A stretch of 64,000 nt of DNA from Amphiscolops sp. MND2022 (Eukaryota), in the NCBI GenBank assembly GCA_964187785.1, contig OZ076410.1, positions 20,274,001-20,338,000 on the forward strand, given 5' to 3'. Both the position numbers and the translations under genes were made by a program. Below, piece after piece: positions 11,283-60,590 of the stretch. The notes beneath the pieces were generated by a model. It ran no database searches. It saw only the letters and a program-made list of their open reading frames with translations, and was not told the origin of the DNA. Positions within the stretch are counted from its first letter, which is position 1. The number at the start of each line of letters is the position of its first letter.

Positions 11283-11294
11283 TCCTCCGGGCCC
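11283..11294 (-). promoter_or_regulatory. Polypurine tract-like plus-strand primer site (GGGCCCGGAGGA)
   Basis: Abuts the 3' LTR TG; conserved (GGGCCCGGAGGT) at 6309-6320 in the degenerate copy. Confidence 0.8.
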
Positions 11295-11442
11295 AAGAAG
11301 GTGTGAATGCAAAAAACTGAAAAAACTTTTTTACTATTTTTTTTTTCGGAAAACGGTTTACATGGAATTTTGATGTACATGTTACATTTTACTCATATTA
11401 GGCATGATTACAAGCAAGAACAAAATTGAAGAAGGTTGAAGA

Positions 11443-18239: not shown

Positions 18240-18845
18240 TTAAGACGAAGGCAGCGAGGAAGCCTTCTTTATAGCTTTACGTGCACGCTTGCTGGGCCTT
18301 TTGGGGCGACTTTTGTCAGTTATTGCAGACAGTTGATTCTCTTTCCGCAGGAAAAAATCTAAATTTTTCAGCTCAAGCTCTGGGCTCTGATGCAGCGCCT
18401 TGAAATTTTTGAGAAACTCGGGATCCTTTTGTTTTTTCACAGATACAAAATCTTTGACGATGCTGAACACTTTGATACAATGATCAGTTTGCAATACTTT
18501 CAATTCTTCGAAAATGTACGGAGTGCGGTTACGTTGGCAATACACCAGAGCACAAAGCTTGTCTTGAAGATTTTTTACGATTTCAATCAAATCCAACTCA
18601 GATAAAGCACGAAAATTATTGCTATCGTGTTTTGAAATACTATTGTTCAGAACATCGTGCCAAATTACAATGTCTTTCAGGTCTTTTGAAAGTAAGTTCT
18701 GAACGATCTTTCTGGGATTTTTTGTATTTGGATTCAGACTCAGACCCGGGATGGTATAGATTTTATCTTTAAAATGTTCTTTTTCATCGGGAGTTAACGT
18801 TTCTATTGCATGGTGCAAAGAACTAGCGGCCAATATGAAAACCAT
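18240..18845 (-). CDS. Extra 201-aa ORF upstream of gag-pol; SGNH/GDSL hydrolase-like fold with basic C-terminal tail
   Basis: Motif spacing resembles SGNH blocks: ILAASSL (I), YTIPG (II), IVIWHDVLNNS (III), FKALHQS (V). Ends SRPKRPSKRARKAIKK (NLS-like). Lies inside the TSD-bounded element on the same strand as gag-pol. The fold call is by eye. Confidence 0.6.
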   Translation of the reverse strand: MVFILAASSLHHAIETLTPDEKEHFKDKIYTIPGLSLNPNTKNPRKIVQNLLSKDLKDIVIWHDVLNNSISKHDSNNFRALSELDLIEIVKNLQDKLCALVYCQRNRTPYIFEELKVLQTDHCIKVFSIVKDFVSVKKQKDPEFLKNFKALHQSPELELKNLDFFLRKENQLSAITDKSRPKRPSKRARKAIKKASSLPSS

Positions 18846-19662
18846 GCGTGTTTCTCAATATGATATTTTTTTTCACAACGTTGAATAAACAAAAAAATCC
18901 TTAGACTGTTTTTTTTCAGCAACACGGATACCAATATAAGGACTCAACAGATTTTCAACATTTTTATATTTTGGAACAAAGTTACATTGAAATTTCGGGG
19001 CTCAAAATAACTAGGTTTTGTTTTCACTGATTTGCTATCTCGAAGAAAAAAAACAATGAATGGATTTTACATGTCTTTTGTTTTTCAATTACTCACGACC
19101 GTAATGCTTCATCGGCACCGTTTCGGGGTTTGACCGGCTGGGTAAACTCATCGGTGGGTTCTTGAGAAGGGAGCTGATAGCGTTTCTTCAACTCTGTAGT
19201 CCCATTCCTCAATCAGAATGAATGTGGGCGATGACTTCTTCCTGCGAGGGCCCGTAACTTTGCCTCCCAATCGAAACGTCCTCAAGTCTTTCTCAAATCT
19301 CGTTTCGCACAGTCAATGTTCTGTTTGTTTATTGCTTTCCATTCGATAAGTAGGAAAGCAGGCCTCAATGAATGTGCTGGTGGTAAGAAGAAAGAGGTAA
19401 GAGTATTGCTGGTGACAGGAGCAACAATATTACAGCAATCTCGTCGGGCTTGTCTCGCAGTGGGGGATTGTTCCTTCGGTTCCTCTTCCTTCTGAGGCGG
19501 TTGGGGTAGCGATGTTCTTCTCTTTCTTCAGCCTCAGTAGTTACTTTCTTCCCTTTCCCGCTTCCTTCTACAAGGGATTCCCGCTTGTTCCCGCGACTGA
19601 TAAAGCTCTGCTTTTCGAGGGGGCTAGAAAATGTGTGTTCAAAATTATCGTTTTGACGTAAG

Positions 19663-19680
19663 ATCCTGGTCTGGACACCA
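19663..19680 (-). promoter_or_regulatory. Primer binding site TGGTGTCCAGACCAGGAT
   Basis: 18 nt immediately 3' of the 5' LTR, starts TGG (complement of tRNA CCA) and ends GGAT (T-arm). Cognate tRNA not identified. Confidence 0.85.
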
Positions 19681-20022
19681 TAAAGAAACTGTATATTCGA
19701 ATCGGCTAATAATACAGTCCGTTTGCAAAGAGTTTTTTGACCGCAGTATTAAAACATTCAAAGACATCAGTGAATAAATCAAAACAACTTGCAAAAGATC
19801 AATGTTGTTTACAAATATAATTAAACAAATTAAAGTTTCGAGATTGCAAATTATTTGAATGATATTTGAAAAATATATTTTACTATTTTCAGAAGTAGCA
19901 AATATTTGACGGTTTCGGGAATCGATCCGGTAACCTTCAAATTCCGAGTCCCATACTCTACCGACCGTGCTACGTTCACTTAATTTTGTTTGTTTTAATT
20001 CAACCATATTTGCTTTGCAACA
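19681..20022 (-). repeat. 5' LTR of intact BEL element
   Basis: Direct repeat of 10941-11282, followed by the PBS on the minus strand and flanked by TSD TTGTG. Confidence 0.97.
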
Positions 20023-21375
20023 TTGTGTTATCCTTGTTTTCTTACAAAAATAATGTTGCGTAATTCTACTTTCTTCAAAATTTCGAATATCCTCTATTAA
20101 AGAACTCGCCTCACTTTTAAAGCACAACTCTCCGATTTGATTACAACTCTATATGCTGACAACAACTCGATAATGGAATTCTTTGTTTAACAATAGCGCC
20201 ACTCATAAGTAATTTCATTCGGTTTTCGAAACTCAACACAAACTTCATTTATGGCAATCGCTTCCTCAAACACCCAAAATATATGTTAACAGAACAAAAA
20301 TTAAATCTGGAGTAACTAATTTCCATCTTTCTCTTCACGCATCTCCTAACTTTGAAAGTCTTCAATTTCGTATAACTCCTAATCACTCCCCATTTAAAAA
20401 AGATGACAGGAGTCTCAACTTTCTAGATCCAACCCGTTCGCATGCAACACGTATGCCACAACTTCCTAATATTGACGATTGCGCCAATGTATCAATACGA
20501 AATCCACCAGCTCTAGTATACATGTAAGCACACACCTATTTGGAACTACAACCCAAAATTTCAAGTGTTGTCTGGCTCAAATCACTACAAAGCAATCTTC
20601 AACACAAAGACTCCTCAATCATGCCCCTTTCACGTCTCAAATATCAAACACACTTTCATGAATACCTCCTCAGTTATTCAACCAAAAACCTATTCACCCA
20701 TACACATGTTTTTACGACACAATCACGATGAAACAATATACTCTTTCTTTCATCACTAATCAACCTGTCTCAATCACACCAACGTTACATCGAACTGCTC
20801 ATTTGTTACACAATTCGATTGATAACTACTACATGTATATGTAACTATTCATAACTGTTATAACTATTCATAATCCTCTACCATAATCGGGCGCATCCAA
20901 GTGCATTAGTTACGTTCGAAAATGGACCTCAACCACTTTACATTCAATCGTTTTTGAGCTGGTATGATCTTCATCCACATGTCTATAAAACTGATTGGTC
21001 CACTTTCAACAAGTTTCCAAAAATATATATGTCTTTCAAAAACATGTATACTACGCAAAATTGAAGACCTCTCTCTTGTTAAAAGGAAAAGGGATTTTTA
21101 TTTCTTTCCGCTCTTAAAGTTTAAATCTTGGTAACACAAGGACGGTACAATGTACATCACTATACAATTATTCTCTAATGCATTGAAAGATTTGTTCAAA
21201 GGCTTTCTAGAAAAGAAGACACTTTGCAAACAAAAAACTATTCAAATATTCATTAGGCTCATTTGAACTTTCGATTCCACTTCGTTAACGTGTTAACATG
21301 GTTGACTCCGAAGACATAACACCTGGGAATACCGAAACTCAAGATCGTTTTCCTGGAAATAACACTCTTTCCAAT

Positions 21376-42644: not shown

Positions 42645-43270
42645 CTTTATGAATCAGAACAATATTGAATTAGAAACTTGAAAGTATAGCAGTAATACAT
42701 CTTGTATGTTTTAGTACAGAATAGTCAATTATTGCAGCAATTATCAGTATTAGTCTTCAGATTTTTGAATAAATATCGTCTCCAGAGTTATTCGAAACTT
42801 CGAGTGATTTGATTATCAAATATGTTTTCTCTCGGGATCTTCCGAGCAAATACAAATTGAAAGTTGTTCGAAATCAATTTGGGATTTGCTTACATTCGTG
42901 TTAATTTCACGTGCATCAAATTGAAAGAAGGATGTTACTTGACTTCAGCTGCTGGCTTGTTTTGGTATTACAGTTTAAAAAACTCAATCACAAATGTTGA
43001 AAACTTGAAAAACCCCGATGAAATCCCAAAATCTTGAAATGAAGTTTTCAGGCCTTGGTCTTGGAATTAAATCGATTACTATTATCGTAAATTTGCTTTA
43101 AATAACAATTTAATGTCTTTTGATGTGAAATTGGCTAATGCAATGTAACGTCTACCAAAAAGGACGAAATTTCCAAAAATTCGAAAATAGATGGCACAAA
43201 AAATGGCCGACATAGCAGGTCCCCAAAATCAGTCTAGAAGACAAAAAAAGATAGCAGAACACCCCAACAC

Positions 43271-45703
43271 TGTTACGACATATTATCGAGTCGTTTTGAG
43301 TAGAACTTATCCTAACTGATTTTGTTGGAGTATAGAAACTCCTAGTTTCCTCTTCTACCTCTTCTTCAGTGTTTTCCCTAATGATCCCTCTTGTTTCAGG
43401 CTTAAGGAGTTTCAACATCTCCTTCTGGGATTCAATAAGAAGATTTTTGATCTCTGACGTTATTTCTTCCTTTAAGGAAGCTCTCAAACTTTCAAGAAGA
43501 CTATTCTCAATCCGGGGGGATTTTGGTTTAGAAGGCCCCGCTACCTCATCGTCCTGATTCGAAGAACAAAGATTTCCTACTACTATGGGTGAAATCAAGC
43601 CTTCACTTACATTCTCACTGGTGCTTTGCTGATCGTTCTTTCTTTTTTGGCTTCTTGTTGTTGACATTTTGTAGAAAAGTTTGATCTTGAAGAATTGAAT
43701 TTGTTTCAAAGATTTTTCTGACAAAGTAGAACAAGGCGAGAGTAGAATTGAAAATTCAACTGAATTGTACAATTACAAAAGACTGAGTCCCTTAATCATC
43801 AAATCCTATCATATTTATACCCTCCCAGCATCATTTGATCACGAACAAAGCCCTAATTTTCCTCGAACAATTAGTCATTTCCTGTATTTTCGATGAAAAA
43901 GTCATTTTGTTCCCAATTTTACGTCGACATTTCGTCAATTTTTGAGACACGATGATCTTCATTTAGCATTAGTCATCAGATTTGATCATATCATTTCATC
44001 TCGGCGTCCTTTTGCTTCCTCCCAAGCAGGAAGTAGATATTACTTCAGTCTGTCAAACCGGAAATGCTTCCCTGTTTTACTGCTTTGGTTCGCGGGAAAT
44101 TGACGCTGAGATGACGCTGACGTGAACAACAAATACCTGATTTTGAACTTCGCTTTGATAAAAATGCTATGACTAATTCCAAAATAGGAATATTTAAACG
44201 ATGCCAGGACAATATTTTATGAATTTGGACTCAATCCTTTGATAGAGATGTGAATGAAATCACGATATGAAAATAATACTTTGTTGGCAACTTTGCCATG
44301 TCGCGTCAAATGCGACAAGATTTATAAAATTAACAGCAACGTTTGTTAAATGACAACACCAACACAACATAAATAACTGGGTAGCAACGGATGAATTAAT
44401 ATTGCAACACTTCCGTTATTGCGATCTAAACGCTTAGATTGAAGTATAAAATGGAAGCACCGCAATATCTATATGCAAAAGGTAAAAATCAATGAAAGGA
44501 ACAACTATAACATTTCAAACATTTTATGAAAATACATTTCTACTACAAAATATATCGTGTATATGGCTGACATGAGAATAAACTGTGACCATTAAGAACA
44601 TATATGCGTAGAAAATTCCCTAACCCAATATTTATATACAAACCTCTTTTTAAATCCGGGCATATGACGACTAGCCAACGACAAGTTTGAAAACTCATTA
44701 CATGTAGGAATCATTATAATAGTTTACTCTTTTAATTCGGAAACACCGACAAAATACTTGTTTTAGCGTTCAAATTACTTTACACAATTTCCCTAAGCTA
44801 AATAACAGTTTAATTCGTCGGAAAAACTTAAATATCCCGTCAAATTCAGTTGTTCGTTTGTTTCAAAACTTGGCAGCGTCATATTGACGAGTTTTCTAGT
44901 CAGAAATCTGAACCTCAAAACTTGGCAGCGTCATGTTGACGAGTTTTCTAGTCAGAATATAAAATTTGCCAAGTCTGACGCATTGCTGACGAGTATTCTA
45001 GAAATGAATAGCTAGCTAGCTGCCATCGCTGTGACGTCACAACGGCGGTTAATTGGAATGATTTCCTAGAATGGTATTCTATATAGGCGGATAATTGGAA
45101 TGATTTCTAGTAAGCGTAGACGAGGCAGTGACGTCAACTGGTATACCTTTCAAAACTTGTCTGCGACCTGTTGACGACAAATATATATGTAGTGTTATTC
45201 TCACTGGTATAATTGTTTGTTTTACGCAGAGTTGCCGTCCTAAACCACTTTAATTGCTGTTCAAACGCAATTAACTAGCCTTATTTTGACAAGGCGTAAA
45301 TTCCTTATATGTATTTCAAAGTGTTCTTTTCATTTTAGATTTGGCTAATGTGCTCTCTGGAAACAATTTGTACTTGTATTTCTATTTAGATTGGCCTATG
45401 ATCTTTCTTCAAGACGCATCTTAATTTAATTTTCAGGTGGAAAAATGTCCAATCTGGCGTGATAGAAACGTCTTGCCGGAAATGCATGAAATCATTTTTA
45501 AATTGCTTCTCCGTTTCCATTTTCATTTTTAGACATGCGCTGACTAGTCGTGTCTTATTTGTCACAGATTATTTTTTATTTCGAGTTTTAAAGTTTAAGT
45601 TAATAATTGAAGTACCATTTGGGGAATCTTGCGTTGCATCCGTGCCCTCTTCCAATTCCCACACGCCTGCAACCACAAGCCAGACCGGGAGCGGGCTGTG
45701 ACA
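43271..45703 (-). repeat. 3' LTR (2433 bp)
   Basis: Direct repeat of 57068-59499. Contains a copy of the Gag leader ORF (43152-43772 in the track) and tandem ~52-bp repeats with TGACG motifs at ~44865-44960. Confidence 0.97.
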
Positions 45704-46328
45704 GGGCCGGTCTTCTGGGATTGAAGCCGCCTCCAGGCAGACGAGGCAAGAACGTCATTGAGTTGTTTTCTGTACTGGGACTGTTTGGAGTATTAACTTC
45801 ACGCGGCTCGTCAAGATCGTTCAGACTGCTTACTGGCAAGAAGTTTATCTTTTTTGGTGATCCAGGTGGTGTTTCGAAATAGGAATCTGCGTCTTCCTGA
45901 TTCACTTGCTCCAAATATTCCAGTACCCTGCTGCTTGTCACTGAGTCTGATTGTGATGCGGGCTCTTCCACTACAAACACGTCAGAGCACATGCTTTCGT
46001 CGGGACTTTCTGGGCTGTCTGGTAGTCCTTCATCTTGTCGTCCGCCCTGATTGGTGCTGGGGGCGCGAAACTGGGGGTCAATAGTGTCTAGGCTTAAGTT
46101 GAGCCTCAGCCTTTTGCAACTTGACTCTAGAGAGTCCGTCGAGATATCTAGGTATTCCTCTTCATCAATCGCTGCCTCTGTGGAAGAGTGAGACAACTCA
46201 AGCACAATTCTGTAGTTTGAAACGGGCTTCTTCGAGAGGGGTGTGGAAGACCTCTCTGATATTTCCCCTTCTTCTTCTTCACTAGAGGAGATGTCGATTA
46301 GCTCGAACACGTTTTTGAAGCTGTTCAT
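45600..46328 (-). CDS. 242-aa acidic, Ser/Glu/Pro-rich, probably disordered accessory protein; C-terminal ~34 codons run into the 3' LTR
   Basis: Uninterrupted ATG-initiated ORF, sense to gag-pol, inside the element. No recognisable domain. Confidence 0.55.
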   Translation of the reverse strand: MNSFKNVFELIDISSSEEEEGEISERSSTPLSKKPVSNYRIVLELSHSSTEAAIDEEEYLDISTDSLESSCKRLRLNLSLDTIDPQFRAPSTNQGGRQDEGLPDSPESPDESMCSDVFVVEEPASQSDSVTSSRVLEYLEQVNQEDADSYFETPPGSPKKINFLPVSSLNDLDEPREVNTPNSPSTENNSMTFLPRLPGGGFNPRRPALSQPAPGLACGCRRVGIGRGHGCNARFPKWYFNY

Positions 46329-46817
46329 TTTCTGCTGAGCACAGTTTATTTCGGAGTTCCACTTGTCGAGGCGATAGATTGTAGCACAATGAATTTAAGG
46401 TTGTTTTAGGATTAAAGCGAATGTCAGGAAAAATCCCTCTATTCTGATTGGTTATCCAATCGTTTTAATCCTTTTTTGTTGTCGTTATGACAACGCCAAA
46501 TTCTATTGGCTGCAAATTGAATTAGCTTGCTTAGCCAAATTTGTCAACGTTATGCTGACGTCATTTCGCTTGCTTAGCTAATTTTTGATTTTGTCACCGT
46601 TATGATGACGTCATTTTAGGATGTGGGATTAATTTTTTAACCCCGATAACCTTTTTGTCGACGTTATGCCGATGTCAATTTCGTCGATTCTTTAACCAAC
46701 TTTTGGTGCTGACGTTATGCCAGCGTCAATTTCGTTGGTGGTTTACCAACTTTATGTTTTGTCACCGTTATGATGACGTCAATTTTCGGTTGTTTTTCAG
46801 ATTCCAACTGTCTCTGA
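46329..46817. promoter_or_regulatory. Putative internal bidirectional promoter with 5-6 copies of a ~21-bp motif GTCA(C/A)CGTTATG(A/C)TGACGTCA and CCAAT boxes
   Basis: Lies between divergent ATGs (46328 minus, 46818 plus). Motif copies at ~46478, 46543, 46593, 46657, 46708 and 46761 contain CRE-like TGACGTCA; GATTGGTTATCCAATC at ~46446. Confidence 0.6.
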
Positions 46818-49800
46818 ATGGATCGTAATCCTCCTCCTTCTCGACGTGACACCGGCGCACAGAGTGGGAACGATACTCAATTCCTTTTTTCTGAAGGAGA
46901 CATTTACCATAGTGATGGTGATGTCATTCGTCGTCAAGCAACTGGTAAGTTTGTAATTCCCCGAACCATTAAGCTTTTGTGGATAATACTTATACCAGAT
47001 AGGCCTTTTCTGATTTTTTGTATTTCCATAGCTTAGATTTTCTGACGCGTCGATACGGGAATGTCTTGTTTGTTGCTAGATCCGCCTCCTTCTCCTCCTC
47101 TGGCTGGTGATTCTGTCGCAGAGTTCAGGGCTTCTCTTCCAGGGGATCTTTCTGGAATCTTGATTGAGCCTCTCGCAGAGTCGACACAGGGGGTCGGTGG
47201 GATAGAGACTGGGGTCACTGCTTCAGTTGTGCCAGTCCCTCCTTCATGTTGTTCCGGAGACTCAGATGTTCCTCTGGCAGTTCTTGCTAAAGATGCCAGT
47301 AGAGTCGACAAAGATGCCACTCACGAAGGTGAGGGGTTACCCCCCCCCCTCTTGAACAGAGAAGTACAGGGGTTCTGGAAGCAAATACTCCCCGATTTCG
47401 GAAAAGAGTTGCAAGGGATACTGGGTCTGAGGGGTCGAAAAGTAAACGTGGTGAGTTATTTTCGTTGCTGAGATTTTTATATTGTGTCGTAGGTCTGTTT
47501 ATGTAGCTCGGTTGTTTTTGTTATACTTCCATGTTCTTTTGTGTCTTTGTTGTGTATCGTGGCATGGTTGTCAGACTGTCGTTTGCTTGTTGTAGTGCAA
47601 TTGATGGATCCTGTCACGAGTGGTTCAGATCTGCCGTCGACATCAAAGCCACCGAGTGAGACTGTTTTCCGGTTCGGGGCACCAGTGGTTCGATTCAGTG
47701 TGTTTGATAGTGACAGTGAGCAGGCTGCTACTGGAGTGTTGCCAAGTACGTCGTCGCGACGGGTCGGACTGGCTGCTGCAGGACTTTCTGATGCAGAGGG
47801 GCATGCTTTGGACCCGTTTGTCACCCGTAAGTTTGTTGGTTTGGCAGTATTACTGCTACTTTTGTTTTCCGTTTGCCGTTGTTTACCGACTATGTGGTGC
47901 TTCCGTCTTATGTGAGGTGCGACTTGTATGCGCATTTGTTATCGTGATGTCTATTTGTTGTAGGTTTTGAGGAGCTGATCAGTCGAATGGAGACGACTCT
48001 GGAGAGTGCAGATCGGAGTCGTAAACGTGTGTACAGTCCGCGAAATCGGCTGCGTCGGGACATGGTCACTGGCAATCCAATTTACGAACTCTTCGTCAGT
48101 GGTTCCAGCACTGGTTCAGACAAGCTGTTCCACTGTATGATCTGCCAGCGAGACGTGTCCATGGAATCACGTGGGGCGGGCGAGTTTAGTCGTCATTTCT
48201 TCGGAAAGCGTCACTGGGTATTGGATGTAACGTACCGTGTCCAGAACGGTCTGCCAGTTTTCAATCGACTGATGGATCCAATGGTGCTCAGTGAGACGCA
48301 GCTGGAGGAGTATCGGAATCGCCCCAGCAAGGGAAAGAGCGAGGGGTATAGTTTTCCCGAGGATTTGCTTCCCGCGTGTATGCAAGCTGACTCCAGTGTG
48401 CCTTTGATGTCGATGGTAAACTGTCTCATCGAGCTGTTGCGTTTTGGTGGCAGTTACGTGCTGCTGCGGAAGTTGTGGGGGTGCTTCCGGGCTACCCTGG
48501 GTCCTAAGGACCCTCTTTATGATGTGCGTTGGAGTCGTCCCGAGTCTTTGGTGAGTATTCTAGAGTCTGATGTCTTGTCTTGCTATTTTCTGTTTGGGGA
48601 GGGGGGTAGTGGGTACATAGTAGTGTCTTTTGTGATATTTCCCATGTGTCGTAAAACATGAAGTGTTGTTGTATTTTAGTCGCTGATCTGTCAGGCGTTA
48701 TTTCCACGAGTGCTACGATCTCTGTTTGCCCGAATTGGCTCTTTCCGGGAGTACAGTGTGTCCTTTGCTGAGAGCGGAGGGTATCACAAATGTGTTGTTC
48801 AGACCTTTGACGAGCATACCCTGATGAGTATTTGTGTCAGGGTCGAGGCCGCTGGGCAACGTGTTCCCGAAGCTGAGCTAGCTGGACTGTCGCGTGTGAT
48901 TGACAGCACCACTGCATGCCAGATGCCTCTGTCGTGTCAGGGATGTAGTCCTACCCTGTTGCGCGTTCTGAGCGACAATCGTGTGGACGGTCGGGAATTT
49001 TTGATGTATCGAGAATTCTCTGTGGACGTCTTCCTGTACTGCTATCGGCTCGCTCACCAAGAAGTGTTCGGTGTCCTGGAGACGACCACGATGATAGACT
49101 TTCTAGTGTTGCGGTTGCGCGGTGCTATTCAAGAACCTTGGTGTGAGAGTGCTCCATGTCTCCGTCGCTGCATCGTTGCTGGTCACGTGGATTTCGCTGA
49201 TCTTCGTGGTGTGGTTGTTGACCTGATGGCAGTGTGGTCACATGTTCAGGACTTCGTGAAGCGTACTGGGCCCCGACACTTCAAAACCGTCGCTGGCCGG
49301 GTAATGATTTTGGTTGAGTTTTCTTCTCCCCGTTTTCTCTCTCTCTTTCTTTTTTTTTGTTTGGGGTAGAGTAAGTTCTCTTTCCTATGTAGTTGTGGTT
49401 TGCCTATATTGTTATTCTTTCGATCGGAGTTTTGATTGTGGGGCAACTGGTGTTATAGATGCGCGGCACTGACTGGCATATCTATTCAGAGGCGACTGTG
49501 CGACTGCACCTGGGTCTTCTGTTGCATGTCCTTGAACTCCGTTAGTATTCCGTTTGAATATTTCGTTTTTCGTGTAGTTGGATGGTGATATTTGAGTGAT
49601 AGCTATATTGGGTGGGTAGGAGGGGGGTAATTTGTAATAGTCGTGATTCATGGGTTGTGTTTTAGACTCCTGTTCTTTCAAGAAACAATCATCCGGTCGC
49701 AGCGATTACGGTTTCCATGGGTACATGGAAATTTGCCAGTTCGTGTATTGTCTTCTGTCGCGGAGTCGAAAATTTGGATCGCTGCCATGTCTGAACTCGT

Positions 49801-50888
49801 GGAAGAGCTATATGGATCTTGAAAAATTGGACGAGTTTGAGAGTGTTTCGCCCCGCGATTTCCTTTGCAATCATGATTTTGGTGCTGAGCTTCGCAGTCA
49901 CAAAGGGGGAGAGTTTCGTGTATTCGAGAGCCTTTGCCCGAAATTTATTGATCGCCTTGTTGTCGCTATTTTGAGTCAACAGCCTGTCACTGGAGAGTTT
50001 TCTCGTGGAGTCTACTGTTTCTGTCCTGAGCTGTTATTCGAAGGAGATGATCAGCACATGTTGATGTTGTTCCAGACGTTAATTCGTGTATTGGAGCGGA
50101 GTGGGGCTGTGTCTTCTCAGGAAGCGAAAACTGCCAAGGAAGAGTATGCGACGTTCGTTGTGGATGCTCGGTCTCGCCATATTGCTAGTGGTGCCAGTGC
50201 AGAGTCGATTGATGATGTGAGACACCATCTCCTATCCGATTACTCTTTCCAGTCCCGCAAGTCATTGTGTCGCGTCTTCAAGTTGTGTTGTTTGGCAGTA
50301 CTGAGGCCTCGTATGGATTTCCCTGTTGTGGAAATCGATCTCAGTGATTGTGTTGTTCCTGCTCTGGTGGTTGCAACGTGCATACAAGGCGTCCAAAGCT
50401 GCGTTATGTCATCTGAGTTTAGGTTGAAGTCCTTCTTTACTCAGTTTACGATGGGTGAAGTCCGAAAATCGATTGCTGGTGCCAGTTCTTTTATGTCGTC
50501 TGGAAGTTTTGATCCGTGGGATGGTTTATGCGGGATTAATCAGTCTGCCTTTGTTAATCGGTATCGTCGGCTTTTTGATGAACGAGTGGGTCGCAAGCGA
50601 AGTGTCAGTGGTGAACAACCGAGTGTCGAGAGTGATGGTGACTATGAGGGTTCCTCATTGTCGGAAAAATCTGCCGCATCTGTTATTTCAGCCCCTGCTG
50701 ATCCTACTTCTAGTGGGTCTAGTTCGTTCCGATTCAGCAAGACGAGAGTGTATGGGAGTGTTGCCTCGTTGTTGGGACGGAAGAAAAATGTTGATGTTAC
50801 TGAAAGCACTAAAGGCAAGAAGAAGTCGAAGAATGTGAGTAAGAAGAGCGTCAGTGAAAGTGGAGAGTCATCTTCAAAGAAGGAGTGA
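46818..50888 (+). CDS. Antisense 7-exon gene, ~1039 aa: zinc finger plus catalytically inactive hAT-transposase-derived protein
   Basis: Exon model 46818-46944, 47080-47328, 47596-47826, 47964-48550, 48680-49300, 49459-49540, 49666-50888. All introns are GT-AG, phases are consistent, total 3120 nt with no internal stop. CMIC...HFFGKRH zinc finger; YSVSFAES at the position of the hAT S(F/L)DES motif; LMAVWSHVQDF, EFSRGVYCFCPELL, AKEEYATFV and RKSLCRVFKLCCL resemble hAT insertion and C-terminal regions. The exon 2/3 junction has an alternative in-frame solution (47450 to 47493). Confidence 0.75.
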
Positions 50889-51108: not shown

Positions 51109-54100
51109 TCAATAGTGAGTCGTAGTAAAAGCGTCGAGGCGTCTGAAGTCAGGATCAGCGTTAGGTTTAGGATTAGGTCGTAAGTTGTACTTCGCTGTTT
51201 TTCTTGGGTTATAGCCGACAACTGTAGGCGGTGATTTTGGGGGAATAGGCGGACTTTCAATGGGTGGGGGGCGCCGTATGTATGGGTTATCCCCTACGTC
51301 TGTAGTGAGATTTGAAAAGTCTGGAGACGTCGGCGTTTCGTCATGCGTGTCACCAGTTTGATTGTCTTGTATTTGTCGTGATGTTATTTCGTCATCTGTG
51401 TTCGTCATTTCTTGTGCGGCAGTCTGTTGGCTGTTTCCCGCATTTCGTGTCGGCTCAATTTCGTCGATTTGTTTTCCAAAATCCATTTCCCAGGATACTG
51501 CGTACCATTCGTTATGCGATACTTTGACGTCTGGATCAGGAAGATATTCATTTGTTCGTACTGTGACGTCAGGCAGTCGTTGTTCTGGCACGTAGGGACG
51601 TATTCTAATGCGATGTAGCGTCTGCGTGTATCTCGTGCCAAGTTTTCGGATCGTATAGTTATTATTTGAAAGTACTTTGATTACTACATACGGACCTGTC
51701 CAGATGCAATCTTGAAATGCAAACTTTGTTGACTGATTGTCGGCTTTCGGGTTGAGTATGTAGCAATAGTCGTTTATCTTGAGTGGGGCTGCGGACGCTT
51801 TTCGGTCGTAGTATTTTTTGTTTTTGAGATAGGACAACATAATATTGTCTTTTGTTGTCGCGCGCACTTCGTCAATTTGTTTTTGTAGTTGATCTGCTAG
51901 GTCGGATTTAGGTGTAGTTTTCCATTTCGGTCGAATGCCTAGCTTTAAGTCGAGCACGTTGTAAGGTATGCGTCCGTGGAATACTGTGGATGGCTCGCAG
52001 CCTAAAGTTTCGTGATACGATGTGTTGTAGTTCATGACTGCAATCTGGACGTATTTGTGCCACATTGAACGTCTTTCTCCCGTTGATATTTTTAGTGCTG
52101 TTTTGATTGAAGCGTGAGTTCGTTCCAATATTCCGATTGTTTGGGCATGTTTTGTGGAAGCGTGACTGATTTGAATTTCTAATATTTGCATTATTTCTGC
52201 CACTACTTCTGATCTAAATTGGGAACCTTTGTCCGATAGGATTAGAGTTGGCAAGTATGCATGTCTTGTCATGACGTCGACAATGCATCTTCCAATTGTC
52301 TTCGCTGTTACATTTTGCGTTGGGTATGCGAATAGGTAGCGTGAGAATACATCAATCATTGTGACAATGTTTTGATATCCCGCCGAGTTTGGTAGGTTGG
52401 GTAATACGTCAATTTCCAAGATGTCCTTCGGGCCCAAGACGTGTTCCGTGTTGTTGATCATTTTCGGTCTGATCTGGGCATTGTTGATTCGTTTGTATTT
52501 GATGCAGTCCTCGCATTGCATTACCCATTGTCTGATACGCTTCGCTAATCCTGGGTAGTAATATTTAGATCTACATTCCTGGATCATTTTGGTGATTCCT
52601 GGGTGTTTACCCATTTGTCCGTGTATTGCTTTTAGGAGTTCCGCAATTAGGTGTTCGGGGATTAATATTTGATGATGTGTGACTTGACCACATTCGCCGT
52701 AATATTTTCTCATTAGGATGCCGTCTTTGACTATTAGTCTGCTTTCATGGATTAATAGTCGTTTGGCAGTCGGGTCAGTTTGTAGAAGGTGTTTGTCGTA
52801 TTCCTCGCAAATTAGTTTCTTTTTGATTGTTTTGATAACTAAGTCTGAGTCTTGTTCGACTCTGATACGTGCATCTTCTTTGATTGCTCCGAAAGTATAT
52901 GATGCTCTATTTATTGGGATTGGGGTGGTCTCTTGGATGGTCAGTTTTATTTTTGTTGGCGCTTCGTCGTTCGCGCTTTGTCTAGCTTTTTCTTTTTGAA
53001 GGAGGATCTCTTCTTCTGTTTCGATTGTTTCGTCAGGTAGGAAGAATAGTTGTTCCTCATCTGCTACATCTGTGGATTGTAGGTTGACTTGTATTGGTCG
53101 GATTGTTATGTCATCTCTGATTTTTAGTTCAACTCTTTCCTTGGGGTTGAGGTCAATTCTCGATAGAAAGTCGGCTGCCGTGTTTTGTGTCCCTGCCACG
53201 TGCATGATGTGGAAATTGAATTGTAGCACATAATCACATGCGTTCCATAGTGTGGGGGGAATCGCTTTTGTTTGGAAGAACCTCGTTACTGATCTGTTGT
53301 CTGTCATCACTAGTGTTGGTAGGGTTGCTTCCCACAATATGTGACTGTATTCCAAAAAGGCGTGGTATATTGCCAGGAATTCTTTGCAGTATATTGACAT
53401 TTTCAGTTGTGCTGGCGAGAATACTTTTGATCCGAATGCAACGGGCGCGAAAGTTTTCTTTTTGGAGTTTAGTTTTTTTTTGTTTTCTTCTTCAATCATT
53501 AGTGCGTACCCTGATGCTCGGAAACTGGCATCTGTCATTAGGACATATTGTCGTCCCGTGATCGGTTGCTTGAGGGCTAGACCACAAGCTTCTGCTAGTG
53601 CTGCGTTGATTGCTTTGTAGTCGTCGGTTATTTTGATCTGTTTGTCTGTTTTTAAGAGTCCGTAGAACCCAATTAGTTTTTCAGACAAGCGCGGTATGTA
53701 GTTGCGGTAGTAGTTGACGAAGCCAATGTATCGTTGGACTTGTTTCTTTGACTTTGGGAATCTGACATTTGATAGGAATTGGTGAATTTTGTGATCCTGT
53801 GGGGCAATTCCTTGTGGGGTGATTGTTCTGCCTAAGAATTCTACTTGTGTTACTCCAAAATGACACTTGTCAATGGATAATTTAAGTCCCGCTCGTCTGA
53901 TGCACTCGAATACCGCTCTGATGTTTCGGATCAGTTGCGTCACAGTATTTGCAGCTTTGCCTATGTCGTCTACATATTGTGCACACTGATCAGCTTTGAT
54001 TACTTTATCCAGGTATTCTCTCATGAAGCTTGAGAATGCCGATAGTGCTCTGCTCAGTCCTTGTGCTAGGCGTTTGTAGGCGAAAGTTCTGCTTGCGAAG

Positions 54101-56034
54101 TTGAACGCTAGCATCTCGATTGATCTTCGGTCTGCCATTTGTAGGCAGTGGTACGCTTGGGAGCAGTCTAGTTTACAAAACAATTTCTTTCCGGCTAAGT
54201 GTTGGGCTGCATCTGACAGTGTGCTGACTGGGTGATTGTTGTTGATGTAGTCGTCCGATATTAGCGCGTTGATTTTTCGGAGGTCGACAAGTAGGCGTAG
54301 TTTGCCATTTGGTTTACGCTGTGCGAAGATCGGGCTGGCGTATTTTGAAAATGGCAAAGTTGTGATTATGCCGTATCTGTGCATTAGTGCCAGTTCGACT
54401 GTTAGGTCTTCTTTTAAGTTGATCGGTACTGGTAGGCTTTGTGTATATATGGGGCGTTCGTCCTTCGGGGTCAGTTTCACCTTGAACTTGTTGTTGATGC
54501 CAATGTCGAGTCTGTGGCGTGCGAAAATGTCGTTATACTCGACTATTGTTTGTTCGAGCTGTTTCCTGTCGTCCCCTTCAATCTGTGAGCCTTCCCATTT
54601 GAACATGTTAAGGAACTCGTTTCTTGACTCTTGGTCTTTGGTCGGGTCGAGTTGTTCTTTCCTCATGAGTTCGCGAATCTCATTGAGTATGCGTCTTTGG
54701 ATTGGTGTGTGTTCCTCTTCATTTCCTGGATTTTCGGGCGTCGGGAACCAGAGGTTGTCGTCGTTCTGCTCGTTATTTGTAGATTTCATGAGTTCATTGA
54801 CGTACATATGTGCATCATCTGGGTCTTGTAGTGTGTTCAGAGCTGCGACGTCTATGGGACGTATTTGTTTTGTGTCCTCTGGTTTAAGTATTTGTAGTTC
54901 TGCCAGTTTGGTGTGATTTGTGATTGTGTATGGGAACTCCGTTAGGTTGGCTATTCTGATGTTGATTCTTTTGTTGTGGGCGGTAGCTAACGCTGGTGCA
55001 ACGATGATGGTGGCTGTTTCGTCGAACTGTGGTAATGGTTGCACTGCTCCTGTAACGTCGGTTGTATTGGTGGTGATGACTATTGCGTTTACGGTTGTTG
55101 TTTGTTGTGGAGGCAGTGTCTGGTTCCCCTCAGTCATGATATGGAGTGGTTTGGGGTTACAATTTTTCTTTTCATCTGTCATGGCTAATGTCATTTCGAC
55201 ATGGGGGAAGGTGATGGTCCCATTGGCTGTATCTATCACTGCTTGGTGATTCCTCATGAAGTTCAGTCCTATTATTGGGAAGGACGTTTTTGAGAGTATC
55301 ACGAAGGTGTCTGTGAAGGTATACGTTCCTATGTTGAATTGTATATCGGCTGTGGCTATTGGTTGCTCCAGTTGAGCGTTTGCGCATTCGATTTTGAAAG
55401 GAGGTTGTGGATACTCTTTTATGACACAGTTGTCACTGTTCATTTTGATTGCATTGTAGTCCGACCAGGACATGGCATTGATGAACGCACCTGAGTCTAC
55501 AAGTCCATCCATTGTTATTTCGCCAAATTCTAGTGGCAAGTACAGCATTCGCCTCCTGCTCTTGAGGACTATAGTCGAGTGGAGAGGTAAGTACGTCTCT
55601 CCGTCCTTTTCAGTAACATACTCTTTAATAGAGTTGAGAGATGTGGGGAAATCTTCTGGGAAGATAGGTACTTGGGTGGAGCCGTGAGTATCTTCCTTTG
55701 TTAGTGGTGACGGTGGTTGGTCTTCATGTGCGTTTTCAGTTTGCTCTATTTGGGTTGCAGTGGATTGTGTTGTGTTAGTGAGGGATGGCTGTATGAGATT
55801 TGGGTGTTGTTTATGGTCGTCTCCATGGTCCTCATCTGGTGTTTGTTCCTTTTCGGTTTGTATGAGGGGTCTTCGTATGGAGGCGAGTGCCTGACGTCTC
55901 AGCCAGTCCTCTGTTGGGGTTCCATCGCATTCTATTGTTGTATCTTTTGTGTAAGCTGTTGGGGGGTCCTCTGGAGAATACGCCCTCGCATCTACTGTTT
56001 CCCCGAAGCGCAGACGCGGCGTAATTAGTTTTTT
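51109..56034 (-). CDS. Ty3/Gypsy Pol (protease, RT, RNase H, integrase), -1 frame relative to gag
   Basis: LVDSGA protease; YVDDI RT; VLMTDAS RNase H; HGQMGKH...CEDC zinc finger; IDVL / SDKGSQF / ILERTH integrase. By manual translation the frame is open from the slippery site (56034) through the track ORF 51109-55548. Confidence 0.96.
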   Translation of the reverse strand, partial: KKLITPRLRFGETVDARAYSPEDPPTAYTKDTTIECDGTPTEDWLRRQALASIRRPLIQTEKEQTPDEDHGDDHKQHPNLIQPSLTNTTQSTATQIEQTENAHEDQPPSPLTKEDTHGSTQVPIFPEDFPTSLNSIKEYVTEKDGETYLPLHSTIVLKSRRRMLYLPLEFGEITMDGLVDSGAFINAMSWSDYNAIKMNSDNCVIKEYPQPPFKIECANAQLEQPIATADIQFNIGTYTFTDTFVILSKTSFPIIGLNFMRNHQAVIDTANGTITFPHVEMTLAMTDEKKNCNPKPLHIMTEGNQTLPPQQTTTVNAIVITTNTTDVTGAVQPLPQFDETATIIVAPALATAHNKRINIRIANLTEFPYTITNHTKLAELQILKPEDTKQIRPIDVAALNTLQDPDDAHMYVNELMKSTNNEQNDDNLWFPTPENPGNEEEHTPIQRRILNEIRELMRKEQLDPTKDQESRNEFLNMFKWEGSQIEGDDRKQLEQTIVEYNDIFARHRLDIGINNKFKVKLTPKDERPIYTQSLPVPINLKEDLTVELALMHRYGIITTLPFSKYASPIFAQRKPNGKLRLLVDLRKINALISDDYINNNHPVSTLSDAAQHLAGKKLFCKLDCSQAYHCLQMADRRSIEMLAFNFASRTFAYKRLAQGLSRALSAFSSFMREYLDKVIKADQCAQYVDDIGKAANTVTQLIRNIRAVFECIRRAGLKLSIDKCHFGVTQVEFLGRTITPQGIAPQDHKIHQFLSNVRFPKSKKQVQRYIGFVNYYRNYIPRLSEKLIGFYGLLKTDKQIKITDDYKAINAALAEACGLALKQPITGRQYVLMTDASFRASGYALMIEEENKKKLNSKKKTFAPVAFGSKVFSPAQLKMSIYCKEFLAIYHAFLEYSHILWEATLPTLVMTDNRSVTRFFQTKAIPPTLWNACDYVLQFNFHIMHVAGTQNTAADFLSRIDLNPKERVELKIRDDITIRPIQVNLQSTDVADEEQLFFLPDETIETEEEILLQKEKARQSANDEAPTKIKLTIQETTPIPINRASYTFGAIKEDARIRVEQDSDLVIKTIKKKLICEEYDKHLLQTDPTAKRLLIHESRLIVKDGILMRKYYGECGQVTHHQILIPEHLIAELLKAIHGQMGKHPGITKMIQECRSKYYYPGLAKRIRQWVMQCEDCIKYKRINNAQIRPKMINNTEHVLGPKDILEIDVLPNLPNSAGYQNIVTMIDVFSRYLFAYPTQNVTAKTIGRCIVDVMTRHAYLPTLILSDKGSQFRSEVVAEIMQILEIQISHASTKHAQTIGILERTHASIKTALKISTGERRSMWHKYVQIAVMNYNTSYHETLGCEPSTVFHGRIPYNVLDLKLGIRPKWKTTPKSDLADQLQKQIDEVRATTKDNIMLSYLKNKKYYDRKASAAPLKINDYCYILNPKADNQSTKFAFQDCIWTGPYVVIKVLSNNNYTIRKLGTRYTQTLHRIRIRPYVPEQRLPDVTVRTNEYLPDPDVKVSHNEWYAVSWEMDFGKQIDEIEPTRNAGNSQQTAAQEMTNTDDEITSRQIQDNQTGDTHDETPTSPDFSNLTTDVGDNPYIRRPPPIESPPIPPKSPPTVVGYNPRKTAKYNLRPNPKPNADPDFRRLDAFTTTHY
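55981..56034 (-). promoter_or_regulatory. Programmed -1 ribosomal frameshift signal: A AAA AAC plus 3' stem-loop
   Basis: Heptamer AAAAAAC (56034-56028) directly before the gag TAA, followed after ~6 nt by a CGCC-GCGTCTGC / GTAGATGC-GAG-GGCG stem. The -1 frame is the pol frame. Confidence 0.85.
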
Positions 56035-57464
56035 GAGTCATTTTCAGATTGTGAAGTCGTCTGGGGGACGGAGGTATCTTTGGTTCGTTCCTGTAAGTTG
56101 TGGCGTTTGGGTCGTGGGTCATTGGCTGAATTGGCCCCGTTCCAGCAATCTTCCGTTTTGTGGGTCTTGCCACATGTATCATATTTGAGTGGGTTGGATG
56201 TTGTTCGGTTGGCTGGTCCGTTATTTCTCCGCGGTTGTTGCCATTTGTCTCTTTTTAGTTTTCGGCATTCAGCTTTGAAATGTCCGAATTTGTTGCAATA
56301 GAAGCAGTATCCTTTTCTAGTGTTCTGGGTAGTGGTTTCATTCGGTTTCGTCTCGGTTTTTGATGGAGTTGGTTCTATTTTGTTGAGGGGTACTAGCGTT
56401 ACCTCATCTGGGGCTCCAAGACCGTTTAGGCGCATTTCTCGTTCTAGGTGAAGTACAATGTCGTTGTAAGGCTTATCCTCGAGGTACGCTCGATTGAGGA
56501 TTTTCTTGACATGGTCCGGCATTTTGGCGTATATTGCTTTGTCTATGAACTGTTGGGCTTCAGCTCCAAATGCTTCTTTTGCTGTTTTCTGAAGTATATC
56601 CAGAAATTCGTGCAATTTCTGTGTTGATGGATCGAATCTTAGCGCATCCCATTCGCATCTGGCCTTTGCCATCGAGAGGTAGTCTCCAAATCGTCGTTTG
56701 AATATTGTCATGATTTCGTCGAGCGAGTCTTTTTTCGAGTCCTCGATGTTGCAGAAAGCTTGTAGTGCGTCTCCTCGAAGTAGGGAGTGGAAATAGTTGA
56801 TTTTCTGTATTTCCGTGAGGTGTGGATACATTTTGATGTTGTTACGAAAAAGGTCTTCAAATAATTCAAATTTTTCCGATTTCCCGTCGAACGTTGGGAG
56901 GGATGCCGTTAATGCTTTTGGCATAGGCAGCGTAGTGTTGTCGCCTTTTTCTGATGTGAACAAAGTTCTCGCTACAATTGGACGTTCTTTTGACGTCGGT
57001 TGACTTTGAGACCGGGCTTTCGTTCGTTTTGGCTGGTTAGTGGAGTCGGTTAGAACTCCTGTCACCATGTTACGACATATTATCGGGTCGTTTTGAGTAG
57101 AACTTATCCTAACTGATTTTGTTGGAGTATAGAAACTCCTAGTTTCCTCTTCTACCTCTTCTTCAGTGTTTTCCCTAATGATCCCTCTTGTTTCAGGCTT
57201 AAGGAGTTTCAACATCTCCTTCTGGGATTCAATAAGAAGATTTTTGATCTCTGACGTTATTTCTTCCTTTATGGAAGCTCTCAAACTTTCAAGAAGACTA
57301 TTCTCAATCCGGGGGGATTTTGGTTTAGAAGGCCCCGCTACCTCATCGTCCTGATTCGAAGAACAAAGATTTCCTACTACTATGGGTGAAATCAAGCCTT
57401 CACTTACATTCTCACTGGTGCTTTGCTGATCGTTCTTTCTTTTTTGGCTTCTTGTTGTTGACAT
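56025..57464 (-). CDS. Gag (~479 aa); first ~132 codons lie within the 5' LTR
   Basis: LPTFDGKSEKF capsid-type motif; CFYCNKFGHFKAEC CCHC knuckle; second knuckle YDTCGKTHKTEDC. The ATG at 57464 (MSTTRSQ) is chosen because it is conserved in the solo LTR ORF at 25699; the track ORF extends to 57569. Confidence 0.92.
   Translation of the reverse strand: MSTTRSQKRKNDQQSTSENVSEGLISPIVVGNLCSSNQDDEVAGPSKPKSPRIENSLLESLRASIKEEITSEIKNLLIESQKEMLKLLKPETRGIIRENTEEEVEEETRSFYTPTKSVRISSTQNDPIICRNMVTGVLTDSTNQPKRTKARSQSQPTSKERPIVARTLFTSEKGDNTTLPMPKALTASLPTFDGKSEKFELFEDLFRNNIKMYPHLTEIQKINYFHSLLRGDALQAFCNIEDSKKDSLDEIMTIFKRRFGDYLSMAKARCEWDALRFDPSTQKLHEFLDILQKTAKEAFGAEAQQFIDKAIYAKMPDHVKKILNRAYLEDKPYNDIVLHLEREMRLNGLGAPDEVTLVPLNKIEPTPSKTETKPNETTTQNTRKGYCFYCNKFGHFKAECRKLKRDKWQQPRRNNGPANRTTSNPLKYDTCGKTHKTEDCWNGANSANDPRPKRHNLQERTKDTSVPQTTSQSENDSKN
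57055..57067 (-). promoter_or_regulatory. Primer binding site TGGTGACAGGAGT (tRNA-Leu-like), inside the gag reading frame
   Basis: Directly abuts the LTR CA. One mismatch to the familiar tRNA-Leu PBS TGGTGTCAGGAGT. Codes for M-V-T-G-V. Confidence 0.75.
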
Positions 57465-59499
57465 TTTGGAGAAAAGTTTGATCTTGAAGAATTGAATTTC
57501 TTTCAAAGATTTTTCTGACAAAGTAGAACAAGGCGAGAGTAGAATTGAAAATTCAACTGAATTGTACAATTACAAAAGACTGAGTCCCTTAATCATCAAA
57601 TCCTATCATATTTATACCCTCCCAGCATCATTTGATCACGAACAAAGCCCTAATTTTCCTCGAACAATTAGTCATTTCCTGTATTTTCGATGAAAAAGTC
57701 ATTTTGTTCCCAATTTTACGTCGACATTTCGTCAATTTTTCAGACACGATGATCTTCATTTAGCATTAGTCATCAGATTTGATCATATCATTTCATCTCG
57801 GCGTCCTTTTGCTTCCTCCCAAGCAGGAAGTAGATATTACTTCAGTCTGTCAAACCGGAAATGCTTCCCTGTTTTACTGCTTTGGTTCGCGGGAAATTGA
57901 CGCTGAGATGACGCTGACGTGAACAACAAATACCTGATTTTGAACTTCGCTTTGATAAAAATGCTATGACTAATTCCAAAATAGGAATATTTAAACGATG
58001 CAGGACAATATTTTATGAATTTGGACTCAATCCTTTGATAGAGATGAGAATGAAATCACGATATGAAAATAATACTTTGTTGGCAACTTTGCCATGTCGC
58101 GTCAAATGCGACAAGATTTATAAAATTAACAGCAACGTTTGTTAAATGACAACACCAACACAACATAAATAACTGGGTAGCAACGGATGAATTAATATTG
58201 CAACACTTCCGTTATTGCGATCTAAACGCTTAGATTGAAGTATAAAATGGAAGCACCGCAATATCTATATGCAAAAGGTAAAAATCAATGAAAGGAACAA
58301 CTATAACATTTCAAACATTTTATGAAAATACATTTCTACTACAAAATATATCGTGTATATGGCTGACATGAGAATAAACTGTGACCATTAAGAACATATA
58401 TGCGTAGAAAATTCCCTAACCCAATATTTATATACAAACCTCTTTTTAAATCCGGGCATATGACGACTAGCCAACGACAAGTTTGAAAACTCATTACATG
58501 TAGGAATCATTATAATAGTTTACTCTTTTAATTCGGAAACACCGACAAAATACTTGTTTTAGCGTTCAAATTACTTTACACAATTTCCCTAAGCTAAATA
58601 ACAGTTTAATTCGTCGGAAAAACTTAAATATCCCGTCAAATTCAGTTGTTCGTTCGTTTCAAAACTTGGCAGCGTCATATTGACGAGTTTTCTAGTCAGA
58701 AATCTGAACCTCAAAACTTGGCAGCGTCATGTTGACGAGTTTTCTAGTCAGAATATAAAATTTGCCAAGTCTGACGCATTGCTGACGAGTATTCTAGAAA
58801 TGAATAGCTAGCTAGCTGCCATCGCTGTGACGTCACAACGGCGGTTAATTGGAATGATTTCCTAGAATGGTATTCTATATAGGCGGATAATTGGAATGAT
58901 TTCTAGTAAGCGTAGACGAGGCAGTGACGTCAACTGGTATACCTTTCAAAACTTGTCTGCGACCTGTTGACGACAAATATATATGTAGTGTTATTCTCAC
59001 TGGTATAATTGTTTGTTTTACGCAGAGTTGCCGTCCTAAACCACTTTAATTGCTGTTCAAACGCAATTAACTAGCCTTATTTTGACAAGGCGTAAATTCT
59101 TTATATGTATTTCAAAGTGTTCTTTTCATTTTAGATTTGGCTAATGTGCTCTCTGGAAACAATTTGTACTTGTATTTCTATTTAGATTGGCCTATGATCT
59201 TTCTTCAAGACGCATCTTAATTTAATTTTCAGGTGGAAAAATGTCCAATCTGGCGTGATAGAAACGTCTTGCCGGAAATGCATGAAATCATTTTTAAATT
59301 GCTTCTCCGTTTCCATTTTCATTTTTAGACTTGCGCTGACTAGTCGTGTCTTATTTGTCACAGATTATTTTTTATTTCGAGTTTTAAAGTTTAAGTTAAT
59401 AATTGAAGTACCATTTGGGGAATCTTGCGTTGCATCCGTGCCCTCTTCCAATTCCCACACGCCTGCAACCACAAGCCAGACCGGGAGCGGGCTGTGACA
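57068..59499 (-). repeat. 5' LTR (2432 bp)
   Basis: Direct repeat of 43271-45703, followed by the PBS and flanked by TSD AACAC. Confidence 0.97.
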
Positions 59500-60590
59500 A
59501 ACACATCCCAGAGAACCCCAGAAACGGCAGAATAACAACCCCGGAAAAGAGAGATAGAGTCTCAGTGTGTGTCGTCTATCCCAGCAGGAGACAAGACACC
59601 TTGGAAAACTCAAAATGGAGGTACCACCTTCTTGTGGATCACCCCAAAGACTCGAAAAACTCCATTACGACGCCAAACAGGGAACTTTTGACTGCAACAG
59701 ATCTGTTGCAGTGTGGTGTGGATTCTTCACATTGATTACATTACGTGGTTTTTCAAGAAATGAGGAAAGTGGAGTCCATGAAGAGACCCAGCAGATGCTT
59801 TTGCTAATTGATTTTGTCGTTAATTTAGCTGTTTCACAGTTTTTGATAGAGCTGGATCTAGTGGATCATTACCTTAGATACTTTTCCTCAATTATAATGT
59901 ATTTTAACTGAATCCTGTCATTGGACCTCGGAGTTTTGTAGGAAGTTGCAGGAACCCTAAGATCCGTTTTCACAGGCTTGTGGGACGTGTCCGGACTTTA
60001 AGAGTGCCGGCATGTTGCCTCGGAGCTCTAATTTGAGAGCCTCCGTATACGTATGAAAAGTCTCCCTAGTAGACCATTTTTGGGAGAAAAACTAGTGTCT
60101 AGGGTTATAGTAAGACAATGGTATCATGTTTAAGCACCCTAGGCATTATCTCACTTCTAGTATGTACGCACCTAGCTGGACGGCACACAACACTTTTCTG
60201 TTGCTAAATCTTGTTGTATCTAACATTTGTGAGAAGATGTAGACACGAACATATCGCCAATGCGATCGATAGATTTCTCGTCAAAAAAATTTGGAACAAA
60301 TCGAACTCCTTTTTATTTCCCTGATGGTTATCTAACTAACAGAAAATAGCTTTCGATGAACTGTTGTTGAAAAAGAATCGTTGCAACCAAATATGCTATA
60401 AGTTTTAAACGTATCGTATTTCTGATTCTATAATCGTTTCAAAAATTTCATTTCAAAACCAGAGAACTTCAAGCAAATCTATCGAGTGACCTAATATTTA
60501 TTGTACTTTTTTCATTGTGTCTTTCAATGCCAACGTTTACTCATCATTTTGTACTGCCCTTTGATAAATTAATATAAACTTTTCAGTTAC

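Follow-up and report, generated by a model that had tools for sequence, protein, structure and literature searches.

A Ty3/gypsy element of Amphiscolops sp. in which gag starts inside the 5' LTR and reads through the LTR end and primer-binding site

Background

Coding sequence inside U3 is familiar from HIV nef and MMTV sag, and retroviral gag starts downstream of the primer-binding site (PBS). The original prediction for the locus described here took it as established that gag starts downstream of the PBS in LTR elements; this describes the typical case, but it does not stand as a universal rule, as yeast Ty1 is a well-known exception. The available part of PMC4974528 describes a Ty1 Gag that begins within the 5' LTR, with the PBS forming part of the GAG reading frame. 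The corresponding part of PMC5454406 gives a 334-bp LTR, an RNA beginning at about nt 241, a 53-nt 5' UTR and a PBS at RNA nt 95-104, in which silent changes are possible; arithmetic on these figures places about 14 Ty1 codons inside the LTR.

For gypsy elements, a literature search of partial coverage, with Repbase and GyDB outside it, returned no description of a gag that starts hundreds of bases inside an LTR. The accessible portion of PMC11117352 reports a pol/LTR overlap only, and that of PMC6451197 does not address a gag start in the LTR. The part of the PMC13524379 supplement that was available lists LTR ends against an offset stated as 3,000 nt from the GAG start; many annelid LTR ends fall past 3,001, yet so do several LTR starts, and a literal offset would not allow this. 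Taken as a lead, these entries mean that LTR/gag overlaps may be commoner than described.

Here we analysed a window, that is, the whole stretch of 64,000 nucleotides from Amphiscolops sp. MND2022 (contig OZ076410.1, positions 20,274,001 to 20,338,000), together with related elements in the same genome and in metagenomes.

Results

Self-BLAST of the window returned one direct repeat of 2,433 columns at 99.6% identity, which is the LTR pair of a 16.2-kb Ty3/gypsy element on the minus strand with the following parts.

57068..59499, minus strand: 5' LTR, TG...CA, 2,432 bp (self-comparison)
43271..45703, minus strand: 3' LTR, TG...CA, 2,433 bp (self-comparison)
59500..59504, minus strand: 5' copy of the 5-bp target-site duplication GTGTT, with the 3' copy at 43270-43266
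56025..57464, minus strand: gag, 479 aa, with leader, spacer, capsid (~190-346) and zinc knuckle
51109..56037, minus strand: pol, 1,642 aa, order PR-RT-RH-IN (Pfam)
56028..56034, minus strand: A AAA AAC adjoining the gag stop, a likely -1 frameshift site into pol
45600..46394, minus strand: ORF3, acidic, of no known family, its last 34 codons within the 3' LTR
47948-48661, 48680-49369 and 49647-50888, plus strand: three antisense ORFs, likely exons of one gene

Only ten differences separate the two LTRs, so the insertion is young, and the element is recently active. The traits of Ty3/gypsy (Metaviridae) are present: the pol order, paired TG...CA LTRs with a target-site duplication, a PBS, and a Gag with capsid and zinc knuckle; 5-bp duplications flank the LTRs of relatives too. 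Pfam placed Asp_protease at pol residues 163-269 (weak, E 0.012), RVT_1 at 574-739, RNase H at 806-935 and integrase at 1126-1295, and the best solved relative of pol is Ty3 Gag-Pol (E 1.8e-43). Membership of Ty1/copia (Pseudoviridae) was rejected, as the integrase does not precede the RT; the element is Ty1-like at its 5' end only. All RT relatives listed for it (at least 120) are without a name, and two related pol proteins (P0454 and P0471) carry a precomputed match to PF00692, which we take to be dUTPase. For Gag, Pfam gave DUF1759 (E 1.9e-9) with Retrotrans_gag and zf-CCHC below the cut-off, a fold search ranked the PNMA2 and Arc capsids on top, all hits being weak (best E 0.038), and the ESM Atlas neighbours were generic Gag and zinc-knuckle proteins. 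The A AAA AAC before the gag stop is read as a slippery site, presumably of the kind known from retroviruses. Purines make up 8 of the 15 bases before the 3' LTR in the window element and 5 to 13 of 15 across families. In three of the six families 5-8 of these 15 bases are purines and the polypurine tract is unclear, here at 45704-45718 (minus strand) and also in L053, and this stretch doubles as ORF3 coding sequence.

Elsewhere in the window, a BEL/Pao-like element with 343-bp LTRs at 99.4% identity and a 2,143-codon open frame occupies 10941-20023 (minus strand), and a broken, inverted BEL/Pao-like element about 70% identical to it lies at 243-6071 (plus strand), the label of both being our assumption from domain motifs. 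There are also a 167-bp near-perfect palindrome (9846-10012) and a 29-bp tandem array of palindromic units (8736-8978).

Three features describe how gag crosses the end of the 5' LTR.

57069..57464, minus strand: LTR-encoded Gag leader, 132 codons, with a basic N-terminus, disordered linkers and one helix
57066..57068, minus strand: junction ATG, formed by the last A of the LTR and the TG of the PBS; Met133 of Gag
57055..57067, minus strand: PBS, 13-nt complement of the host tRNA-Leu(CAG) 3' end plus CCA, coding for M-V-T-G-V

The gag ATG at 57464 lies 397 nt inside the 5' LTR, close to the 400 nt originally estimated, and its frame is stop-free to 56025, passing uninterrupted across the LTR end and PBS (CGT AAC A/TG GTG ACA GGA, the slash marking the LTR end). 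The terminal CA and the PBS TGG form an in-frame ATG at 57068-57066, as had been noticed, and this ATG is present in 30/30 copies of the window family. The leader, predicted to be about 132 aa long, has 132 codons and contains both RSQKRK, a candidate nuclear-localisation signal, and EIKNLLIESQKEMLKLL. A gag that starts in the LTR and continues across its end and the PBS is thus real, and the finding of the same frame in five families bears out the proposal that the integrase attachment (att) site and PBS are under dual DNA and protein use. A host tRNA-Leu(CAG) gene was called by ARAGORN in one of five loci checked, and the tRNA-Leu 3'-end pattern has 845 matches in the genome and 0 in the control. 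Many of the 845 matches, among the first 100 listed, fall in a tandem array (G000:C8:35587798-35641273) whose repeat unit measures about 296 bp. The PBS sequence of the window element is absent from the table of PMC13524379 in its available part.

Homologous Gags group at 79-98%, about 55% and about 30-45% identity. Among the 111 homologues in which 100 residues or more precede the capsid motif, 99 have an M-V-T-G-like motif in that stretch, although these are mostly close relatives and not independent. We examined 20 kb around each of 14 elements from four other families in the same genome. Thirteen have paired LTRs of 1.5-2.2 kb, and in 13/13 the 5' LTR ends at the A of the junction ATG (in three of them the alignment overran the LTR end by 1-5 bases by chance); the fourteenth is without a paired LTR. 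The LTR end follows the gag start by 343-586 nt in these four families, leaving 114, 127, 189-193 and 195 Gag codons inside the LTR. BLASTN among the LTRs of the five families gave no match, and when leaders were aligned and compared with shuffles, one pair was clearly above them (0/200) and the other pairs gave 6-163/200. The same junction in families with unalignable LTRs indicates that the layout is ancestral to the whole lineage and no quirk of one copy.

A sixth family, on the metagenome contig locus L132, shows the same junction after 129 codons, its LTR end being placed from the motif alone because a single LTR copy is present there. L132:2-11624 reads pol, antisense gene, ORF3, one LTR, gag and pol; it may be a tandem pair with a shared LTR, a one-LTR circle or a collapsed assembly. 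Among 102 scored candidates in this genome, a P0150 query at E 1e-200 or 1e-140 did not find the P0150 family, and a close relative was located in L132. Pattern matches that encode a relative numbered 0/415 in IMG/VR and 3/277 in the JGI metagenomes. In some families (P0160, P0206 and L132:9740-9795) the junction peptide H/D-M-V-x-G is tandemly repeated 2-4 times, which suggests duplications of an att+PBS unit inside gag.

The junction ATG results from an LTR ending in CA that abuts a PBS starting with TGG, a combination that always gives ATG in one frame; YNYAACA is the general consensus of LTR ends in the relevant part of PMC3601003. One of the other two frames at the junction is closed by the PBS's own TGA, so a gag that crosses has two frame options. 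Inheritance locks the choice, and once set the frame is hard to change because one alternative hits the PBS TGA and the other needs two compensating indels. As att and PBS function fully explain the conservation of the ATG, this conservation says nothing about initiation.

The original prediction had proposed a short Gag from the junction ATG, and this part was not upheld. In such a scheme, long Gag would be accompanied by a short capsid-plus-nucleocapsid Gag, made through an internal transcript, re-initiation or internal entry, perhaps as a copy-number brake of the kind of Ty1 p22. Its appeal lies in the presence of the ATG not only in every window-family copy but also in 59/60 copies of three other families, in a purine at -3 in 4/5 families and a G at +4 in all (the window copy, with A at -3 and G at +4, has good context), and in a position 58-83 residues before the capsid motif, so that the Met133 product would hold the entire capsid. 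Moreover, Ty1 produces an N-terminally truncated Gag from an internal mRNA, according to the section of PMC4974528 available. However, the -3 base belongs to the terminal repeat and tracks it, being A, G or C, with C in one whole family and in L132. Between gag start and junction there are four AUGs in the window copy, three of them kept in 29-30/30 copies, and 13, 4 and 18 in the reference copies of other families, which makes simple leaky scanning implausible. In addition, each of the three frameshifts that the leaders of the 30 copies contain is a single event, so no leaderless lineage is seen replicating. We consider two Gag isoforms quite unlikely; the second start codon is probably incidental to the DNA signals that meet at the LTR edge.

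Judged from codon variation among copies, the leader is coding and under purifying selection. For the window family, we used the best 30 of 40 scored DNA matches, window copy included, leaving out columns where fewer than 20 codons were clean or a stop was the commonest codon and applying no transition correction. Leader variants shared by at least two copies comprised 37 synonymous and 22 non-synonymous changes and 0 stops (pN/pS 0.16, p=7.7e-12), with 12, 11 and 36 variants at the three codon positions. The two other frames of the leader gave pN/pS values of 1.36 and 1.36, the 396 nt upstream of the leader gave 1.00, 0.57 and 0.75 in three frames, and the gag body gave 0.11; one upstream control frame gave a singleton-variant signal (0.43, p=0.001). 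Both leader halves are constrained (0.28 and 0.09), and the start ATG of gag is kept in 30/30 copies.

Three further families were represented by 20 of 78, 20 of 65 and 20 of 76 listed places, as plus-strand copies spread over protein-ranked lists, and their leader pN/pS values of 0.25, 0.23 and 0.20 (0.34, 0.31 and 0.26 with transitions weighted threefold) are biased downward because the copies come from such lists. Off-frames of these leaders gave 1.06-2.03 and upstream LTR controls 0.52-1.07 (0.67-1.46 transition-corrected), two of the controls giving a shared-variant signal before transition correction (p=0.03 and 0.018). Codon-level conservation in the 3' 400 nt or so of the LTR, proposed as a check on the prediction, appeared as frame-specific purifying selection in 4/4 families tested, the test covering four of the five families with the P0087 family left out. 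The leader is mostly disordered in the model described below and poorly conserved between distant families, as might be expected of a frame that is untranslated or open by chance, with Gag truly starting at the junction ATG. This explanation is refuted in substance by the frame-specific selection and the invariant start codon, and we regard it as extremely improbable.

AlphaFold2, run on a 46-sequence alignment, modelled the capsid at ~190-346 and left the leader disordered save for one helix at residues 55-88 (pLDDT 70-94).

57201..57302, minus strand: codons 55-88, amphipathic helix predicted to self-associate (model)

A three-copy fold of residues 45-100, run without the alignment, scored 0.37 against 0.01 for the best control, with partner pLDDT of 71-72 and 83% contact agreement between runs. 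The mark for self-association was reached by 21/30 solved homo-pairs and 0/23 monomers in a microbial two-copy calibration (animals 7/16). The modelling therefore supports self-association of helix 55-88, with the qualification that amphipathic helices may pass easily. Basic residues account for 4-7 of the first 15 in all five families, and from its sequence the basic tip of the leader may act in nuclear localisation or RNA binding.

Upstream of the gag ATG, two candidate promoter elements were found.

57611..57616, minus strand: TATAAA, a likely TATA box, 152 nt before the gag ATG
57578..57583, minus strand: TCAGTC, matching the initiator TCAKTY, the likely transcription start, 33 nt after the TATA

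TCAKTY is the initiator consensus in the part of PMC3601003 consulted. Both the TATAAA and the TCAGTC are conserved; TCAGT is present in 30/30 copies, and an AUG between initiator and gag start in 0/30. The chance of an AUG-free 5' UTR is 0.04-0.39 per family, so each such case is individually weak, and an AUG lies within 125 nt upstream of the gag start in 4/20 and 3/20 copies of two other families. TATA motifs occur 136, 139 and 197 nt before the gag start in three other families; within 260 nt of the start, a search for TATA[AT]A was negative for two of the five families and for two of the three copies from another family. A search for a conserved AATAAA at the R/U5 border was negative in five families, and L132 has an AATAAA 61 nt before the junction ATG. 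By analogy with some elements for which the available part of PMC3601003 reports a dual TATA/poly(A) role, such a role is possible for the TATAAA.

In each of the six families ORF3 stops 14-34 codons into the U3 of the 3' LTR, always in the same frame, and its long frame is intact in 11/15 elements. It is acidic with a low-complexity look and has an IDISSSEEE stretch, which to us resembles a SUMO-interacting motif. The antisense ORFs are likely one gene of about 850-900 aa, with single frames of 794-880 aa in L066-L071, and each of the six families has homologues, at 22-48% identity. A check for an envelope gene after pol, as carried by errantivirus-like gypsy elements, gave no Pfam family above the cut-off for either ORF3 or the antisense ORFs, and ESM Atlas returned nothing usable for the longest antisense ORF; the antisense gene has a CxxC...H...H motif and, in one family, a faint zf-BED match (E 0.78).

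A further signal lies within the leader itself.

57402..57407, minus strand: GTAAGT, splice-donor-like, after codon 19; family-specific, in 30/30 copies

With this donor, the leader could be common to two proteins, namely long Gag, translated from unspliced RNA, and a regulatory protein whose first codons are spliced to ORF3. The conserved GTAAGT and the AG dinucleotides right before the first Met of ORF3, in the same phase, fit such an arrangement, as does Cer1 of C. elegans, in which Gag N-terminal exons are joined to a 3' ORF to give CERV, according to the available text of PMC10309623. Against it, two invariant codons are unremarkable given the rate of variation observed, ORF3 carries a Met of its own in every family shown, and the acceptor is without a clear pyrimidine tract. 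A GTAAGT-like donor is absent at the equivalent place in four other families, and a lineage-wide conserved splice donor was accordingly rejected. As both leader halves are constrained, splicing at codon 19 cannot be the sole fate of the RNA. Our assessment is that a spliced second product is unlikely.

Discussion

The original prediction that the element can make a long Gag with an LTR-encoded leader is supported by selection in four families, by a TATA and initiator upstream without an intervening AUG, and by the predicted helix 55-88. We consider it highly probable that this is a gypsy element whose gag runs from 397 nt inside the 5' LTR through the PBS, that one long Gag is likely its product, and that the junction ATG likely serves only as an internal Met.

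In the mechanism that we propose, RNA would start near 57583, ribosomes would scan about 120 AUG-free bases to 57464, and translation from the first AUG of the genomic RNA would likely yield one long Gag. Through the leader, the capsid would be preceded by a basic tip and a helix that self-associates, as in other gypsy Gags with N-terminal extensions, and Gag-Pol would arise by -1 frameshift at 56034-56028. If replication follows the standard LTR scheme, R and U5 of both new LTRs would be copied from the RNA 5' end and U3 from its 3' end. Lying in R/U5 downstream of the predicted start, the gag leader would then be inherited from the copy that is translated. An overlap of gag and LTR should therefore cost little, as selection on the protein reaches both new LTRs. 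ORF3 in U3 would mirror the gag leader, its 3' LTR copy being the one that is translated and visible to selection.

These elements show that a capsid gene can harbour the LTR end, integrase site and primer site one third of the way along its length, and that this placement can persist across families whose LTRs are otherwise too diverged to recognise. Pipelines that treat LTRs as non-coding, or that seek gag only after the PBS, will truncate such Gags, and gene callers will report many false genes of 130-200 residues from solo LTRs. The window holds one such frame.

43152..43667, minus strand: leader copy of the 3' LTR, an open 171-codon frame with 132 Gag codons and 39 of flanking host DNA

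Many library proteins match Gag residues 1-133 and then stop. First-look candidates numbered 2,530 by DNA and 15,528 by protein, which are not copy numbers. A solo LTR carries a promoter, a start codon and a predicted oligomerising helix, which suggests a testable way in which trans-acting Gag fragments and chimeric genes could arise. In its most far-reaching form, the idea would be that a very successful, undescribed gypsy lineage moved both coding ends into its LTR, making each solo or 3' LTR a ready-made gene head equipped with promoter, AUG-free leader, start codon, basic tip and oligomerising helix, and that leader peptides made by the many scattered LTRs as fusions to flanking DNA co-assemble with Gag through the helix, acting as a copy-number brake or giving rise to new host genes; we hold this to be a long shot.

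Parts of this arrangement have counterparts in other systems. As in HIV nef and MMTV sag, the last 14-34 codons of ORF3 lie in U3. The Retand (Tat) elements, a plant gypsy lineage, share a long region between pol and 3' LTR with antisense ORFs, but have a TRP28 domain, to which the window element has no Pfam match, and a gag start in the LTR is not mentioned in the available part of PMC11963269. Cer1, also Ty3/gypsy, likewise has an N-terminal coiled coil before its capsid (PMC10309623, in the part available), so the leader protein itself is not strange, but its address is. The 5'UTR of Cer1 reaches past its 492-bp LTR (positions 957 and 1175 are called 5'UTR), so its gag does not lie in the LTR, and its primer is tRNA-Pro. 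The closest parallel is Ty1 of Saccharomyces cerevisiae (Ty1/copia, Pseudoviridae), as both elements start Gag in the LTR and code through the PBS, and since the principle is known from Ty1 the surprise is limited. The present elements differ from Ty1 in having 114-195 codons in the LTR, including a predicted structural helix, and in being gypsy rather than copia, with tRNA-Leu(CAG) as primer, LTRs of 1.5-2.4 kb, an antisense gene and an ORF3 that ends in the 3' LTR. What is new here is the scale, the predicted self-associating helix encoded in the LTR, and a second ORF that ends inside the other LTR end.
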